From positions 1 to 37,915 of the IMG/VR virus record IMGVR_UViG_2778261269_000005: a stretch of 37,915 nucleotides of DNA; one strand, 5' to 3'. The stretch comes from a virus (lineage: Duplodnaviria; Heunggongvirae; Uroviricota; Caudoviricetes). Shown here piece after piece: positions 3,316 through 33,781 of this stretch. A program made the translations under genes and the position numbers. The notes under the pieces were generated by a model. The model was not told the origin of the DNA. It worked only from the letters and a program-made list of their open reading frames with translations, and did not search any database. The first letter of the stretch is position 1, and every line of letters begins with the position of its first letter.

Positions 3316-6300
3316 CGGTATACTCCGCTTAACTGCCCGCCATCACGGGACTGTTGTTGCATAAAATCTTCTGCAGCCCTTTTCCCCAGGTTGTAAACCG
3401 CCTGCATGACTTCCGGCCCAATCTGTCCGTTCTGGCCATCATTATTGATCTCGATGTTGTACTGCGGCGCAAACATCACCATCCCCGAACCACAGGTCGC
3501 TGCCACAACACCCAGCTTACCGTCAGCCCCCCTGCGCAAGGGCAGGATAGCCTCAGGCCCCGCTTCACCCATCACCCCCGCGCCTTTTGCAAAAGCAAAA
3601 AACGTCGGACGGTTAACCACCGTGCCACTGTAGCGACTCAAATCAGCAGACTGATAAACACCACCTTCTGCATTGGTTTTCACATCACCGAAATCAAACC
3701 CCATCACACTGCCAATCCCTTTGACAGCCTTCATCATGGTTGCCTGCGCCAGAATTTTTGCCATATCTGACAGCACAGATGAGGTGAAAGATTTGAAATT
3801 GAGTTTGCCGGTGGTAACAAAAGTTGCCAGACCATTTCCCATACTACTGAAAGCAGACATAAACATCTGTTCTGCAGTCCCGGCAGCATTATCCGCGTCG
3901 GCAGTAAAATTCATGAACGCGCGTTTTGTACCGTTTCTCCACTCCCCCTGCGCAGCATCCATCTGTTGCCAGTAGCGGCGATTCTCATTCAGTTTCCGGT
4001 TCAGACTGTCTGTCAGCGTCTGTTCAGCCTTCCGGTATGCGTCAGAACCATACGAGCCTTTCTGCTTACTGTCCCGTTCAAGTTGCTCCAGCTGTTGCTG
4101 GTACTGCTGTCGTAGACGCAACTGCGACTGGTACCGCTGCCGTTGCTGATCGCCCATTCCTGCCATGGCAACGTCCAGATCGTGTTGCTGACGCTGTGCG
4201 CGCTCTTCCTCAGCCAGTTGACTGGTCAGCTGAATGGTCTTTTTCTTCAGGTCATTGAGGGCAGTCTGCTTCTGCAGCTCCTGCTGTTTTGCATCCAGCA
4301 GCGTCAGTGCCTGAATCAGCTCATCCTTGTGAGCCAGTACACTTTTTTCATCTGCTGTCAGTTTTTTACCGGCTAAATCGCTGATACGCTGCTGAAGGGC
4401 CAGAAGCTGTTTATGCGCTTCTGTCATCCTTTCAGTAGCCATGCCCGCTGACTGTCTGGCGGCGGCAATCTGTCCCTCCACCTGCGCCTGTTGCTGGCTG
4501 TACTGCAGTAATAGCCGGGTGGCCTCATCATTACGGGTGGCAGGCGTTTTTTTCTTAATGGCTTTTTCGTAACGTTCATTTTCACGCTGTATCGCTGCGT
4601 CCCTGACCGCCTGATCGGCGTACTGCATGGCATTAATACGCGCAATTTCACGCTGATGTCGTGCTGCTTCCGTTTCGTTCATCCGGTTCAGCGCGGCATT
4701 TTCAGCATTCCGGCGTTTCTGCTGCTCCTGATAATTTCGCTCAGCCTGCTCTTTTGCATCCTGCAAATCCTGCTGGCGTTTTCGCTCTTGCAGCGCATCC
4801 AGTTGTTGCTGATCGTATTCCCCCGTGGTGGACGCCTTAGTCCACGGAAATTTCTTCGCCCGCTGAATTTTTTCCTGCAGCGACGCAATCTGCGCATCAA
4901 GGGAATCTTCCCGACCAATGTTCATGGCCGCATCCCAGAACTGCTTCCACCAGTCAGACAAGGTTTGCAGCGTACTGCCCAGCGCATTGAGGTTATTATC
5001 AATATCCGACGTACGTTTACCGGTTTCCTCTGCCAGTGCAGACATGGCTATCCGGGCTGCGTCACTGGTGCGCCCCTGCTCTCCGAGCACACGGATCTGT
5101 TCAAGCTGGGTGGCTGTCAGAAAATGCAGTTCATCATCCAGCGCCTTCGCAGCACTGACCGGATCATCCTTCAGCCGTTTAAACTGACTGATGGTGTCAC
5201 TGACAGACTGCCCTACCGAGCGTTCCATCTGTGCGGCAGCTTTCGCCACCATACCAATATCGTTACCGTGAAATGCACCGCTCCCCACTACCTGCGCCAG
5301 TGACCCCGCCATGGCATGTTGCGTGATGCCATTACCGGAAAGATTTTTACTGAGCGCCCACAACTGCCCGGCTGTCACACCGGCATAGTGTCCGGTGAGC
5401 TCAAGCTGCCGGTTAAAGGCTTCGCCTTCTTCCTGCCCCTCCATCCAGGCTTTACCCAGACCAATAACCGCAGCAGTGATCCCTCCGATAACTCCCCCCA
5501 CCGCCAGGCCTTTCGGAGTCATTAATTTATCAATCCAGCCGGCACGGTTAGCCAGGGTGATCCCGGAGCCACGAAGCGCACCGAAATTACCTCGCGCCAG
5601 CTCACCAATCATGACCCCCAGCTCCCGACGGGCTGCCGCACTTTTCAGTCCCAGCGAATGTGTGGTGTTTCCGGCTTTCTCCATTTTACGGATGTACACC
5701 TCCGCGGCACTGCTGCACCCAAGTTGTGCCGCCTTTGCCCGAAGCAGTTCCGTCGTGGTCATTTTCTGGCGACTTGTCTGTTCTTTCAGCTGACGAATAA
5801 ATGCGGTTTTCTGGCGGGTGGCCGTTTCCTCTGCCTGTGTCAGAACGCGGGTTTTCGCTGTCACCTCAGAAATCAGGGCCAGATAATCCTGCTGAGCAAT
5901 CCCGCCACTGTTTCTGGCCTGTCGGATCTGCTGCTGAATACGCTGTAACTCCTGCAGCCCCGCACTGGCCTGTTTTACGCTGTCGATCTGACGATAAAAT
6001 GCGGCAGCCATCTTATCCTGCGCCGCAGCCAGCGCAGCCGCCTGAACCTGCTCCTCCCGCATCTGACGACTCAGGGCCTCCATCCGCAGGCGCGCCCTTT
6101 CCACATCTTCCGCCAGCGAAACATGCCCCTGCGCATGCTTCACCACGGCCTGAGTCTGTATCACCGTCGCGCTGGCAGCCTGTTTCTGACTTTCCTCAAA
6201 CCGTTTCATACGGGCTTCGGCCCGCTCCGCCTCCCTTGCTGTACCATTCAGCAGATTTTTTACACGCGGAAGCTGCTCTTTAAAATCGGCGGTATCAATG

Positions 6301-19912: not shown

Positions 19913-19989
19913 TGGAGAGCGGGTGGCGAGAATCGAACCCACATCATCAGCCTGGAAAGCTGAGGTAATAGCCATTATACGATACCCGC
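19913..19989 (-). tRNA. diverged tRNA-Gly(UCC)-like gene, possibly a pseudo-tRNA
   Basis: Minus strand reads GCGGGTATCGTATAATGGCTATTACCTCAGCTTTCCAGGCTGATGATGTGGGTTCGATTCTCGCCACCCGCTCTCCA: cloverleaf with GGTTCGATTC T-loop and UCC anticodon, but a 7-66 mismatch, wobbles in the T-stem and no clean CCA. Confidence 0.55.
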
Positions 19990-20206: not shown

Positions 20207-21253
20207 TTAAAAATCTTTCGTGATTTCTCTGACCGTCTGATTAAAACGTTCCTCTTCCAGTTCCACGCCAATCGCCCTGCGTCCCAGCGACAGTGCCGCT
20301 TTTATTGTCGACCCCGACCCCATAAAAAAATCTGCGACCAAATCGCCTGGACGGCTGCTGGCAGTAATTATCTGACGCAACATATCCGCCGGTTTTTCAC
20401 AGGGATGTTTACCCGGATAATACTGCACGGGCTTGTGCGTCCAGACATCCGTATACGGAACGGCAGCCGATACGGAAAAATAACGCCGCAGGGATTTGTA
20501 CTCATCCAGCAGGCTGGCATATTGCCGGTTCAGTTCGCTGTATGTGCTGACCAGCTGGTGGGGTGGCTGCTCCAGTTCACCGCGCTGGTGTTTTTCTGCC
20601 GCAACACGCGCAAACAACGCCTGCAGTTTACTGTAATCGGCCTCATTCGGTAACTGCCACTGACTGGTACCAAACCAGTGCGAAGCCATGTTTTTCTTTC
20701 CGGTGGCTTCAGCTATCTGTTTTGACGTTATCCCCAGTAATTCACGCGCATCACGGAAGTAAGAAATCAGCGGAGCCATCACGTGCTGTTTAAGCTCGCG
20801 CCCCTTTGCTGCATAGCCGTCATTTTTTGGCTGGTATGGCCCCTGATAATGTTCAGCAAACAGAATGCGCTCTGTTGCCGGGAAATATGCCCGTAAACTT
20901 TCCTTATTGCACCCGTTCCAGCGTCCGGACGGCTTCGCCCAGATAATGTGGTTCAACACATTAAAACGTTCACGCATCATGAGTTCGATATCTGATGCCA
21001 GTCGATGGCCACAGAACAGGTAAAGACTTCCGGCAGGCTTCAGTACCCGCCAGAACTGTGCAAGACACTGGTCCAGCCATTTCAGGTAATCATCGTCCCC
21101 CTTCCACTGGTTATCCCAGCCCTCGGGCTTCACTTTAAAGTATGGCGGGTCTGTGACTATCAAATCGACAGAGTTTTCCGGTAAGGTCAGGATAAATTCC
21201 AGGCAATCAGCGTTGACTAACTCACAGCTGGATATTTTTACAGTATTAGCCAT
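20207..21253 (-). CDS. DNA methyltransferase, beta-class N6-adenine/N4-cytosine (DPPY) family
   Basis: 348-aa ORF; N-terminal LIVTDPPYF (motif IV) and C-terminal DFFMGSGST (motif I). Confidence 0.85.
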   Translation of the reverse strand: MANTVKISSCELVNADCLEFILTLPENSVDLIVTDPPYFKVKPEGWDNQWKGDDDYLKWLDQCLAQFWRVLKPAGSLYLFCGHRLASDIELMMRERFNVLNHIIWAKPSGRWNGCNKESLRAYFPATERILFAEHYQGPYQPKNDGYAAKGRELKQHVMAPLISYFRDARELLGITSKQIAEATGKKNMASHWFGTSQWQLPNEADYSKLQALFARVAAEKHQRGELEQPPHQLVSTYSELNRQYASLLDEYKSLRRYFSVSAAVPYTDVWTHKPVQYYPGKHPCEKPADMLRQIITASSRPGDLVADFFMGSGSTIKAALSLGRRAIGVELEEERFNQTVREITKDF

Positions 21254-21774: not shown

Positions 21775-22488
21775 TTAACGCACTCTGACTGTATTAATTT
21801 CAAAATCATTAATATTTCCGCTATTAAATATAACGAATTTCTTACCCCCACTCCTGTATGATTTCGATAACACCAGACGAGCATCATAACGCGCAATAAT
21901 GTAATACCATACATTCTCATAGTGGATCGCCTGATATTCCCTCTTAAACTGTGGTTTGTACCAACCGGCAATGAGAGAGAATGCCCAGAAATAAATCATA
22001 AACCCAGCCATCATGAACTCAATTCGGTGATGGCGAATAAAAGACATTTCCGAAAAACATTTGACTGAAACAAGTCTTCTTCCAGACCTGACAAAAAGCG
22101 TGATTGTAAAGGCAGCAAGAATGCAGAAAATCAGTACATCTGGCTCAACATGCTGATGAATTACCGAAAACTCCAGAACAGGTGGAATAAAAAGCAGCAA
22201 TATCGCGAGAAAAAGCCGGATAAAACTCAAATTTTGTATATTGCGCTTTTGTTTTATGCCCAAAAAGAAAATAATACCAACTCCCCATCCAATAAGGAAT
22301 ATAACGATAACTGTCACAGCATAAAACAAACTTCGTGCTACATCATCGACACCAGCCCCGACAACCCACCATGGAAAGCCATAGTAAAATGAAGTACCCC
22401 ATCCATAGAAATAAGCGCTTCCCCATCCTAGACAGCCCATATAAGCAACAAAAAGTGAAGAGTTTCTGAGCAGAGCACTGTCATCCAT
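21775..22488 (-). CDS. hypothetical polytopic membrane protein (AT-rich moron downstream of Q)
   Basis: 237-aa ORF in a markedly AT-rich island; aromatic-rich N-terminus (WGSAYFYGWGTSFYYGFPWWVVGAG), several hydrophobic helices, about 100-aa soluble C-terminus. Confidence 0.55.
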   Translation of the reverse strand: MDDSALLRNSSLFVAYMGCLGWGSAYFYGWGTSFYYGFPWWVVGAGVDDVARSLFYAVTVIVIFLIGWGVGIIFFLGIKQKRNIQNLSFIRLFLAILLLFIPPVLEFSVIHQHVEPDVLIFCILAAFTITLFVRSGRRLVSVKCFSEMSFIRHHRIEFMMAGFMIYFWAFSLIAGWYKPQFKREYQAIHYENVWYYIIARYDARLVLSKSYRSGGKKFVIFNSGNINDFEINTVRVR

Positions 22489-25235: not shown

Positions 25236-25493
25236 ATGCGTACAACCCAACAATTCAGCATTACATTAACTAACGAAATGGCTGACATGGTGCGCGCCCG
25301 TGTGGCTTCCGGTGCCTATGCTTCAGAAAGCGAGGTCATTCGTGAAGGGCTTCGCGCACTGAATGAGCGCGATAAAGCAATCGAAGCGTGGTTAACGCAT
25401 TCAGCCGCCCCCTCTCTTGATTCTATCCGCGAAAACCCAAACAACGGACGCTCCATTTCACAGGTTCGCGCCGCGATTCGATCCGGGAAGTAA
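25236..25493 (+). CDS. parD: type II antitoxin, ParD family (RHH)
   Basis: Start set at ATG 25236 (GAGG RBS): MRTTQQFSITLTNEMADMVRARVASGAYASESEVIREGLRAL... Confidence 0.8.
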   Translation: MRTTQQFSITLTNEMADMVRARVASGAYASESEVIREGLRALNERDKAIEAWLTHSAAPSLDSIRENPNNGRSISQVRAAIRSGK

Positions 25494-25498
25494 TCTGC

Positions 25499-25798
25499 AT
25501 GACATATGAAGTCATCATTACTCCTGAGGCCGAACAACAAATAATCAACCTGCACAGGTATATAACGGAGAAAGCAGGGAACGTCATTGCTGACAATTAT
25601 GCCAATGCGCTTCTTGATTATCTTGATGGGTTTTCTACATTCCCGCATCGGGGCAATAAACGCGATGATATTCGCCAGGGGATGCGGGTAACTCATTTCC
25701 GCCACAGAACGATTATTGCTTTTGCCGTTGATAGCAGAAAAGTCTTTATTGTCGGTATCTATCATGGTGGGCAAAGTTATGAAACCGATTTCTTATAA
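25499..25798 (+). CDS. parE: type II toxin, ParE/RelE family
   Basis: 99-aa ORF 5 nt after parD; ...RQGMRVTHFRHRTIIAFAVDSRKVFIVGIYHGGQ is ParE-like. Confidence 0.8.
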   Translation: MTYEVIITPEAEQQIINLHRYITEKAGNVIADNYANALLDYLDGFSTFPHRGNKRDDIRQGMRVTHFRHRTIIAFAVDSRKVFIVGIYHGGQSYETDFL

Positions 25799-29889: not shown

Positions 29890-30315
29890 TTAGTGCATCA
29901 CCACGGCATTTCCCGCCGGGCCACCACGATTCATCTGATTGAAGCCAGCGATCGCCACTGCGACAAAATCATCGGCGTCTCTCACCAGCCGTTCCCGCGA
30001 CTCCACCAGCTCCCGAAACCAGGCTGAACTGTGACTGCGCATTCGGGCCACCAGCAGAGGCGGCATTGCCTTTTCGATCGCAGGCAACAACGCCTGAATT
30101 TTTTTAACCGCATCAGGAGTGTCTTTCTCCACCCAGCGGAAAATTTTCTGGGTATTGCGAGCCAGGGCTTCTGGGTGTGAATCGTCATACAGTTCCGGAA
30201 ACGTCATACCCAGTTCAAAATAAGCCCGGGTTATTTCAGCTGCCGGAACTTTTTCGCCGTCCGGATGCGCCCAGGCATTCATCGCCATGCGGATGTGCTC
30301 ATGCTTGATTTTCAT
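29890..30315 (-). CDS. YdaT-like protein (CII-position early regulator)
   Basis: 141-aa ORF beginning MKIKHEHI, directly after the Cro-like gene (ATGA overlap). Confidence 0.5.
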   Translation of the reverse strand: MKIKHEHIRMAMNAWAHPDGEKVPAAEITRAYFELGMTFPELYDDSHPEALARNTQKIFRWVEKDTPDAVKKIQALLPAIEKAMPPLLVARMRSHSSAWFRELVESRERLVRDADDFVAVAIAGFNQMNRGGPAGNAVVMH

Positions 30316-30614
30316 GAATCAACTCCATCAGATAAGCATGCACTACAATCACCTTCAGCATGAACTACATGTGTTTGCCCCAAACGAATGCCGCTCGCAT
30401 ACTCAGGCCAAATAAGCTCCCAATCATGGGGTCGTAGCTCCGCCCTACTTACTTGGCCTTCCGTCGCAGATTCGATCATAAGGGCGCGGGTTGGAGATAT
30501 AGCTGCTCGTCCAGACGCCATTTGCGATAAGTAAGATGGCGATACACCAAGTCTGGCCGCGAATTTCTTAGCATCACCAACCCTCAATGATTTAATAAAC
30601 TCTTTTAATGTCAT
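30312..30614 (-). CDS. Cro-like HTH regulator (YdaS-type)
   Basis: 100-aa ORF; FAARLGVSPSYLSQMASGRAAISPTRA HTH; divergent from the repressor across an operator-rich intergenic region. Confidence 0.7.
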   Translation of the reverse strand: MTLKEFIKSLRVGDAKKFAARLGVSPSYLSQMASGRAAISPTRALMIESATEGQVSRAELRPHDWELIWPEYASGIRLGQTHVVHAEGDCSACLSDGVDS

Positions 30615-30620
30615 ACCTTC

Positions 30621-30705
30621 CTCGGTTTAGTGTTTTTTTCGAGTTTAGTGTTTAATAAACCATTAAGTCAAGTATTTGCTTATTTAGTGATTACTAAAGA
30701 TAATT
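30621..30705. promoter_or_regulatory. OR-like operator/promoter region between Cro-like gene and repressor
   Basis: GTTTAGTGTTT at 30625-30635 and 30643-30653, TATTTAGTGA at 30681-30690, TTAAGTCAAGTA at 30663-30674; TTGACT and TTGCTT-17-GATAAT promoter-like hexamers. Confidence 0.5.
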
Positions 30706-30710
30706 ACCAC

Positions 30711-31082
30711 ATGCAAAAAAAAGAAATTCGCCGTTTACGTCTCAAGGAGTGGTTTAAAGATAAAACTCTGCCACCCAAAGAGAAGAGCTACCTATCTCAA
30801 CTAATGAGTGGGAGGGCCTCGTTTGGAGAAAAGGCTGCCAGAAGAATAGAGCAAACATACGGGATGCCGGAAGGGTATCTGGATGCGGAATACGCAGAAC
30901 AACCGGAAGTTTCTCCACCACATGTAGGGTTAACGTCTAATCAACTGGAATTATTGCAGATTTTTTCAGCCTTCCCTGAGGATGAGCAACGCCAGATAAT
31001 CAGCGAGTTAAAGCAGAAAAAAGAATCAATGGAAGATCTCATAGCGAGATGGATTGCGGCGCAAAAATGCCGCCGCGCCTGA
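30711..31082 (+). CDS. prophage repressor, XRE-family HTH without S24 peptidase domain (CI analogue)
   Basis: Start set at ATG 30711 (123 aa): MQKKEIRRLRLKEWFKDKTLPPKEKSYLSQLMSGRASFGEKAARRIEQTYGMPEGYLD; almost no leader after the -10-like GATAAT. Confidence 0.65.
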   Translation: MQKKEIRRLRLKEWFKDKTLPPKEKSYLSQLMSGRASFGEKAARRIEQTYGMPEGYLDAEYAEQPEVSPPHVGLTSNQLELLQIFSAFPEDEQRQIISELKQKKESMEDLIARWIAAQKCRRA

Positions 31083-31102
31083 GTTATAAAACCGGAGGAA
31101 AC

Positions 31103-31294
31103 ATGAATAGAGCCCTTTCACCAATGGTTTCTGAATTTGAAACCATTGAACAAGAAAACAGTTACAACGAATGGCTGCGTGCGAAAGTAGCAACGAGCCT
31201 TGCAGATCCGCGCCCAGCAATTCCCCATGACGAAGTTGAGCGCAGAATGGCAGAACGCTTTGCTAAAATGCGCAAGGAACGGAGCAAGCAGTAA
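31103..31294 (+). CDS. putative type II antitoxin
   Basis: Start set at ATG 31103 (GGAGG RBS), 63 aa; stop 1 nt before the toxin start. Confidence 0.55.
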   Translation: MNRALSPMVSEFETIEQENSYNEWLRAKVATSLADPRPAIPHDEVERRMAERFAKMRKERSKQ

Positions 31295-31295
31295 A

Positions 31296-31574
31296 ATGTT
31301 ACCCGTGTTATGGCTTGAAAGCGCAGATACCGACCTAGATGATATAACTAGTTATATTGCTCGTTTCGACATAGATGCGGCTGAACGCTTATGGCAGCGA
31401 TTAAGGGGTTGTGTGCTGCCGTTATCCGAACATCCGTATTTATACCCACCAAGCGACAGAGTACCTGGCTTGCGTGAGATTGTAGCCCACCCTAACTATA
31501 TAATTCTATACCGCGTAACAACATCAAGCGTTGAAGTAGTAAACGTGATCCACACAAGACGCCAGTTTCCCTAA
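31296..31574 (+). CDS. RelE/ParE-superfamily toxin
   Basis: Start set at ATG 31296 (92 aa): ...LREIVAHPNYIILYRVTTSSVEVVNVIHTRRQFP is RelE/ParE-like. Confidence 0.65.
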   Translation: MLPVLWLESADTDLDDITSYIARFDIDAAERLWQRLRGCVLPLSEHPYLYPPSDRVPGLREIVAHPNYIILYRVTTSSVEVVNVIHTRRQFP

Positions 31575-31640
31575 CTTTCACTACCAATAGAAACATAACA
31601 ACCGCAACGACTTTATCAAAAGCGTTGTGTTTGTTACGCC

Positions 31641-31690
31641 CCATGGTTTAGTTTTTACTTGACTTAAGTTTAATGTTTATTAAACTAAAA
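31641..31690. promoter_or_regulatory. OL-like operator/pL-like promoter
   Basis: GGTTTAGTTTTT, ACTTGACTTAAG (inverse of the OR TTAAGTCAAGT) and TTTAATGTTTATTAAAC repeat the OR elements; TTGACT-16-TAAACT on the plus strand. Confidence 0.5.
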
Positions 31691-31865
31691 ATACCAACCC
31701 ACCCCGCCCCACAGAACGCAGGGCAATACTTCGAGTTACCATGCAGTGGTCAGGGGGTAAGTAGCCAGCCCGAGGCGTAAGAACATGACGGCAGGGTTCA
31801 ACTTTAATAACTATGCAGCAGGTTTTTGTTCCGCTACCCCGGCGTTAAGGGGAAATGAGGTCAGC

Positions 31866-33338: not shown

Positions 33339-33396
33339 TTTCTGGTGACGTTTGGCGGTATCAGTTTTACTCCGTGGCTGCTCTGCCGCCCTTTTT
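33339..33396 (+). ncRNA. dicF: DicF small regulatory RNA
   Basis: TTTCTGGTGACGTTTGGCGGTATCAGTTTTACTCCGTGGCTGCTCTGCCGCCCTTTTT matches remembered DicF nearly base-for-base, with 3' hairpin and U-run, upstream of dicB. Confidence 0.85.
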
Positions 33397-33592: not shown

Positions 33593-33781
33593 ATGGAAAC
33601 GTTATTACTCAATTCCACTACGCCTGAGACTCGTTTTGAAATTGGCGTTATCACTGGCGATAAAAACTTTATTGAGGATGCCATTAATCAGATAAAGCAT
33701 GAGCCAGATTCATCAAATGAGATATGCATTGCTTCAATGCTGGCCCGTTTACGCCCGACGCAAAAAGGATGCTGGCAATGA
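33593..33781 (+). CDS. dicB: cell division inhibitor DicB
   Basis: Start set at internal ATG 33593 (62 aa): METLLLNSTTPETRFEIGVITGDKNFIEDAINQIKHEPDSSNEICIASMLARLRPTQKGCWQ. Confidence 0.85.
   Translation: METLLLNSTTPETRFEIGVITGDKNFIEDAINQIKHEPDSSNEICIASMLARLRPTQKGCWQ

Follow-up and report, generated by a model that had tools for sequence, protein, structure and literature searches.

The question raised by the DNA analysed here (37,915 nucleotides, referred to as the window) concerns two short genes that lie between a phage repressor gene and the promoter PL: what do they encode, and what would they do for the prophage that carries them? The first-pass annotation took them for a toxin-antitoxin (TA) pair of the RelE/ParE type in the position that rexAB holds in lambda. 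Judged from their sequences, the two genes are those of the PaaA2 antitoxin and the ParE2 toxin of E. coli lambdoid prophages, which are already crystallised and well studied. In the following, we first describe the pair and the immunity region around it, then the published mechanism of the same system in O157:H7, and finally other readings and the rest of the prophage.

Both genes are encoded on the + strand. The first, paaA2 (31103..31294), extends from the ATG at 31103 to a TAA and encodes 63 amino acids, and the second, parE2 (31296..31574), extends from the ATG at 31296 to a TAA and encodes 92 amino acids; a single base, 31295, separates the TAA of paaA2 from the ATG of parE2. The raw sequence and the list of open reading frames (ORFs) agree exactly with the earlier description in coordinates, lengths, strand and 1-nt spacing. 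A GGAGGA Shine-Dalgarno sequence lies 5 nt upstream of the paaA2 ATG, and a GGAG stands ahead of the parE2 ATG, within the 3' end of paaA2. The mechanical ORF list also contains a 124-aa, TTG-started ORF (31200..31574), which we do not accept as a gene model; the experimentally defined start of parE2 is used instead.

The search against ParE/RelE and antitoxin family profiles, which had been proposed as a check, returns family matches for both proteins. For the 92-aa protein, the Pfam family is ParE_toxin, aligned along residues 4-91 (E=1.6e-16; 61 bits, with the cut-off at 23). Its C-terminus had been singled out as ParE-like; the similarity to ParE stands, but the restriction to the C-terminus is too narrow, because the match covers the whole toxin. 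The 63-aa protein matches Pfam PF21217, 'PaaA2, stability determinant' (E=1e-19; 70.7 bits, with the cut-off at 27), and NCBIfam TA_RelB_antitoxin (5.2e-24), and at E<=0.1 it matches no RHH, HTH or other Pfam family besides PF21217. Solved structures give a more specific answer. Residues 2-63 of the paaA2 product, all 62 of them aligned, are identical to PaaA2 of PDB entries 3ZBE, 5CW7 and 5CZE (E=5.5e-37), an identity that covers the 62 native residues in the crystallised construct. The parE2 product is identical to ParE2 (PDB 5CW7_B) at 91 of 92 positions (E=2.6e-59), the sole difference being A87T. The toxin chain of 5CW7 and 5CZE is titled 'plasmid stabilization protein ParE', and the solved relatives of ParE2 that are farther away (3KXE, 6X0A, 5CEG and 8C24) are all ParE toxins. 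The pair belongs to the type II TA systems of the RelE/ParE superfamily, as had been suggested, and it can be placed more finely on the ParE branch, since the ParE_toxin match is above its cut-off and the NCBIfam RelE_StbE match (TIGR02385, 22.0 bits) is below its cut-off of 27.9.

The first gene of the operon is paaR2 (30711..31082, +), which encodes a 123-aa repressor analogous to CI. As the first-pass annotation stated, the pair follows this gene directly on the same strand; the gap to paaA2 is 20 nt. Residues 1-65 of PaaR2 are identical to PDB 7NKV/8C3K, titled 'Phage repressor protein CI', which is the N-terminal domain of PaaR2, and the C-terminal part resembles DicA (NCBIfam, 4e-7). A Peptidase_S24 domain is not matched in PaaR2 by the Pfam search, which agrees with the published finding that mitomycin C elicits no response. 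The mechanical list gives this gene as a 150-aa, GTG-started ORF (30630..31082); we replaced it by the experimentally defined start, the leaderless ATG at 30711, from which the N-terminus reads MQKKE, as in the protein sequencing of PMC8630535.

Upstream of paaR2, the intergenic region OR (30615..30710) comprises the 96 bp between the ydaS start at 30614 and the paaR2 start and contains repeated operators of the GTTTAGT type. It also contains two promoters on opposite strands. PR (30671..30642, -) has the -35 hexamer TTGACT (30671..30666) and the -10 hexamer TAAACT (30647..30642) with an 18-nt spacer, and PRM (30676..30704, +) has TTGCTT (30676..30681) and GATAAT (30699..30704) with a 17-nt spacer; from this arrangement, the PRM transcript would begin at the A of the paaR2 ATG and be leaderless. 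Downstream of parE2, the OL operators and PL (31646..31686, +) follow, with TTGACT (31659..31664), a 16-nt spacer and TAAACT (31681..31686). The hexamers of PL are the same as those of PR, and PL is directed away from the paaR2-paaA2-parE2 operon. An 18-bp operator palindrome pattern has six strand-specific matches, against 0.15 expected by chance, and these correspond to four distinct sites, all in OR and OL/PL. Because operator and promoter clusters that share repeats flank both sides, the pair lies inside the immunity region bounded by OR and OL, between repressor and PL. The claim that this slot is equivalent to that of rexAB likewise holds, and the same analogy has already been made in PMC8630535.

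A promoter scan detects no promoter-like site on the + strand from 30711 to 31296. We rejected an internal promoter for paaA2-parE2 that is independent of paaR2, the only candidate being a weak 9/12 match at 31315..31343, inside parE2; this site is taken as chance, since five sites were found in the region where 2.5 are expected. Similarly, a consensus terminator scan detects no terminator-like sites on the + strand here, and a canonical intrinsic terminator after parE2 was rejected. Along with the coupled stop and start codons of the pair, these negative scans lend indirect support to co-transcription of the three genes in the window. Instead, an imperfect stable hairpin is located between parE2 and PL (31596..31636, +), with an RNA fold of -19.5 kcal/mol (z = -4.0 against shuffles). 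The hairpin is conserved in O157:H7 and phage Evi and is a candidate for the end of the PRM transcript, albeit non-canonical as an intrinsic terminator. Inside the same hairpin, the - strand carries a promoter-like site (31619..31592; TTGATA, 16-nt spacer, TATGTT, upstream TG) that would read antisense into parE2, and a 50-aa ORF (31492..31644, -) overlaps this region. Both are probably due to chance; nothing is annotated there in RefSeq genomes.

The genes on the other side of OR are divergent. A ydaS-like gene (30312..30614, -) is transcribed from PR and encodes a 100-aa Cro analogue (Pfam YdaS_toxin 3.9e-12, HTH_3 1.4e-6), which also gives weak Cro matches in the Pfam search. It is followed by a ydaT-like gene (29890..30315, -) that encodes a 141-aa functional analogue of lambda CII (Pfam YdaT_toxin 1.5e-9) and agrees in position and size with that of O157:H7. 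The high-affinity operator of YdaT, OM TTGATTTTCATGAATCAA (30305..30322), is located at the ydaS/ydaT junction; the published TTGATTN6AATCAA, an operator defined by footprinting (Prolic-Kalinsek et al., PMC9986795), occurs nowhere else in the window.

We thus have an orthologous ParE2 toxin, a PaaA2-family antitoxin immediately 5' of it and the HTH regulator PaaR2 upstream, together with divergent ydaS-ydaT, OR with PR and PRM, the YdaT site OM and the downstream OL/PL. Nothing was found against the identification, and we regard it as nearly certain that the window locus is the three-component type II TA operon paaR2-paaA2-parE2, in an immunity region of the CP-933P/Sp12 type and with a published mechanism. 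The first-pass finding is real and its structural reading right, but it re-describes an already known system, which has been named since 2010 and has crystal and NMR structures, an eponymous Pfam family and a thorough study of its regulation; the window locus departs from the reference locus only at the level of alleles. The value for annotation is that the immunity region is typed as CP-933P/Sp12, that the start of the repressor is fixed at ATG 30711 rather than GTG 30630, and that PR, PRM, PL and the operators are placed.

The reference locus is paaR2-paaA2-parE2 (RAE2) of E. coli O157:H7, in the cryptic prophage CP-933P of EDL933, or Sp12 of Sakai, which has the same genes, order, spacing, promoters and operators. 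The DNA is ~99% identical over 1.24 kb (30560..31800), the order ydaT-ydaS / paaR2-paaA2-parE2 / PL is shared, and the N-terminal domain of PaaR2 is identical. Compared with the studied allele, that of the window has A87T in ParE2, a few changed residues in the PaaR2 linker (EVSPPHV against GGSPPHA) and a different OR. The latter is ~98% identical to the O157:H7 region that was studied by 5'RACE, EMSA and DNase I footprinting, and it is 96 bp long rather than the published 97 bp, one G being absent between the first two GTTTAGTGTTT repeats, which puts them 18 bp apart rather than 19; in addition, the palindrome overlapping PRM has a G>A change in its left half-site. The two changes in OR fall near 30639 and 30683. 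This OR allele, with both the 1-bp deletion and G>A, is common to all eight retrieved loci with ParE2-T87 and is absent in O157:H7 and phage Evi. Outside the immunity region, the window is another mosaic than the O157:H7 prophage, with a second parDE pair and without the IstB/DnaC-like gene beside the O-like gene.

In O157:H7, paaR2, paaA2 and parE2 form one operon (Jurenas et al., mBio 2021, PMC8630535), and the same study established the leaderless PRM transcript of paaR2 by 5'RACE, N-terminal sequencing (MQKKE) and mass spectrometry. The footprints of PaaR2 and YdaS overlap on the operators in the 97-bp intergenic region; the two proteins repress PR, PRM and PL933P, whose hexamers equal those of PR933P, and the region is bistable (PMC8630535). 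YdaT activates PRE, which yields an alternative paaR2-paaA2-parE2 transcript (PMC8630535, PMC9986795). The CI/Cro/CII analogies and the placement of paaA2-parE2 in place of rexA/rexB were already drawn there (PMC8630535). By extension from this ~99% identical locus, PaaR2, as the CI analogue, would be produced in the window from a leaderless PRM transcript that runs on into paaA2 and parE2, and would compete with the Cro analogue YdaS for the OR and OL operators, forming a bistable switch; the CII analogue YdaT would switch on the second promoter, PRE, which also reads into the operon.

With regard to the products, ParE2 of O157:H7 is toxic unless neutralised by PaaA2, is found at the nucleoid and triggers SOS, and PaaA2, which lacks a DNA-binding domain, is a substrate of the proteases ClpAP and ClpXP (PMC8630535). 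The ParE-fold toxin encoded here would act likewise at the nucleoid and induce SOS, and PaaA2, which according to the literature binds ParE2 highly cooperatively in a large hetero-oligomer, would be the protease-labile partner. Upon loss of the locus, PaaA2 would decay and ParE2 would kill or arrest the cell. Such post-segregational killing is reported for the O157:H7 locus, whose stabilising effect on an unstable mini-F equals that of ccdAB (PMC8630535); the operon alone and the whole ydaST-RAE2 region are each reported to have this effect. The authors proposed genome stabilisation as its role (PMC8630535). In the window, the module would confer addiction to the immunity region and thereby to the prophage; losing this region by deletion, or having it replaced through recombination with a heteroimmune phage, would carry a penalty. 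Note that no toxin activity was seen at steady state in single cells in either transcriptional state (PMC8630535), so the addiction role rests on plasmid-loss rather than prophage-loss assays. Moreover, CP-933P is defective, and regulation could have other consequences in the prophage of the window, which looks more complete.

Other prophage-borne TA pairs of the ParE family include ParE_SO/CopA_SO of the Shewanella prophage CP4So and PfiT/PfiA of Pseudomonas Pf4, which are reported to stabilise the prophage or to modulate its production. They belong to other phage types, have other antitoxins and are located outside a lambdoid immunity region, with no control by a CI analogue.

Canonical ParD-ParE systems, such as RK2 parDE, Caulobacter ParDE1 (3KXE) and Vibrio cholerae ParDE2, share the ParE fold with the window toxin (E=3.6e-5 for 3KXE), and in them, as in paaA2-parE2, the antitoxin gene comes first and is tightly coupled to the toxin gene. 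Unlike their antitoxins, PaaA2 has no ribbon-helix-helix DNA-binding domain, and autoregulation is therefore delegated to the separate repressor PaaR2. The toxin raises a further question, namely whether ParE2 is a classical gyrase poison like RK2 ParE and V. cholerae ParE2. Its ParE fold and family membership are in line with such a target, as are SOS induction and co-localisation with the nucleoid. However, ParE2 is reported neither to bind GyrA59 nor to inhibit gyrase, in which it differs from canonical ParE toxins, and PMC8630535 calls its target 'to be uncovered'. We consider gyrase poisoning to be on the unlikely side.

Another reading concerns the slot rather than the target and takes up the first-pass hint at phage exclusion, the one part of that annotation for which the analysis yields no support. 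Besides or instead of addiction, the pair may act in the manner of RexAB: expressed from PRM in the lysogen, it would exclude superinfecting phages or abort their infection; the trigger would be, for example, the shut-off of host transcription by a phage or degradation of the labile PaaA2, which frees ParE2. Position is the basis of this comparison. As in lambda rexA-rexB, the pair lies between the repressor gene and OL/PL and, according to the work on O157:H7, shares the PRM transcript of the lysogen with the repressor; the slot is occupied, PaaA2 is protease-labile, and the module is present in the isolated coliphage Evi and not in cryptic prophages alone. Many type II TA systems are now tied to phage defence. 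On the other hand, rexA-rexB has no sequence or fold relationship to paaA2-parE2, and lambda Rex is an exclusion system made of a sensor and a membrane channel, whereas PaaA2-ParE2 is a type II TA system for which addiction is demonstrated and exclusion is suggested by the analogy of position. PADLOC-DB v2 models of known anti-phage defence systems match none of PaaA2, ParE2 and PaaR2 at E<=0.01, and the literature searched yielded no phage-challenge or other phage-defence test of PaaA2-ParE2, a result that is no proof of absence given the thin coverage of subscription papers. Furthermore, the authors who studied the locus proposed genome stabilisation, and activation of the toxin was not seen in the steady state. 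On balance, an exclusion function is unlikely.

A more specific form of the exclusion idea, in which paaA2-parE2 is an abortive-infection or anti-recombination device in the Rex slot of Evi and of an apparently more complete, possibly inducible prophage, appears very doubtful to us. If it were true, a superinfecting or heteroimmune phage that stops PRM and PRE or swaps the immunity region would cause release of ParE2 and death of the cell, protecting the resident lineage, and the allele with T87 and the OR deletion could tune the switch. Finally, the toxin as a RelE-type, ribosome-dependent mRNA interferase is scarcely credible and was rejected: the shared superfamily, the NCBI annotation 'RelE/ParE family toxin' and the weak RelE_StbE match speak for it, but that match stays under its cut-off and the ParE_toxin match clears its own easily, the nearest solved relatives past ParE2 itself are all ParE toxins, and the phenotype is SOS induction, not translation arrest.

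Among 5426 complete E. coli genomes, the TA pair is present in 633 (in 586 of them at >=99% identity), paaR2 plus OR in 593, and the whole 2.3-kb region, at >=80% coverage, in 591. Since these counts nearly coincide, repressor and TA pair travel together. In the phage collection, a single record contains the region, Escherichia phage Evi (LR597642.1), in which ydaT-ydaS / paaR2-paaA2-parE2 / PL is 98.6% identical to the window; the remaining genome of Evi is only partly related. Evi is a coliphage isolate from infant faeces, which indicates that the module is not confined to dead prophages. In its record, an intact parE2 (4986..5264) is left unannotated and paaA2 is labelled 'hypothetical protein'. 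In the assembly collection, 74 blocks list the exact ParE2 sequence with T87 (24 contigs were read), and two NCBI draft assemblies share 12.3 kb with the window at 100% identity.

The window as a whole is a mosaic lambdoid prophage. Its - strand contains late genes (a tape-measure-sized ORF, portal and terminase), a tRNA-Gly, a DUF968 gene and an O-like replication gene, and its + strand after PL contains a DUF1391 gene, the first of the PL operon, followed by DicF, dicB, a DUF1482 gene, an exonuclease and an integrase. Within the nin-like region, on the strand opposite to its neighbours, a second, canonical pair consists of a ParD antitoxin (25236..25493, +; 85 aa, Pfam ParD_antitoxin 1.6e-7) and a ParE toxin (25499..25798, +; 99 aa, Pfam ParE_toxin 4.5e-10). 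The second ParE has no close solved relative and shows no BLASTP similarity to ParE2, which rules out a recent duplicate of ParE2. The two toxins being unrelated in sequence, one prophage contains two unrelated ParE modules. In seven of eight related contigs, the second pair recurs at the same distance from paaA2-parE2 as in the window.

The PL operon downstream of the TA pair resembles the dicA / ydfA-ydfC-dicF-dicB region of Qin. It contains the DUF1391 (YdfA-like) gene, the antisense sRNA DicF (33340..33391, +; Rfam RF00039, 75 bits) and a 62-aa ORF (33593..33781, +) in the position of the gene called DicB (PF05358) in related loci, and the C-terminus of PaaR2 is DicA-like. With DicF and dicB in the PL operon, PaaR2 would also silence cell-division inhibitors, as DicA does in Qin. 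Unlike the window, Qin has no TA pair behind dicA.

On the other side of the immunity region, the - strand segment 28065..29866 comprises the O-like replication gene (HTH_36, 320 aa) and, directly after it, a DUF1627 gene. In O157:H7 and one related locus (L006), an IstB/DnaC-like ATPase gene is located between the two; it is missing in the window and in most loci of the T87 lineage. Farther away, between a putative membrane-protein gene (21775..22488) and candidate lysis genes, a tRNA-Gly(TCC) (19917..19989, -) adjoins a 348-aa ORF (20207..21253, -) that has a DPPY motif and, from its sequence, looks like a DNA methyltransferase.
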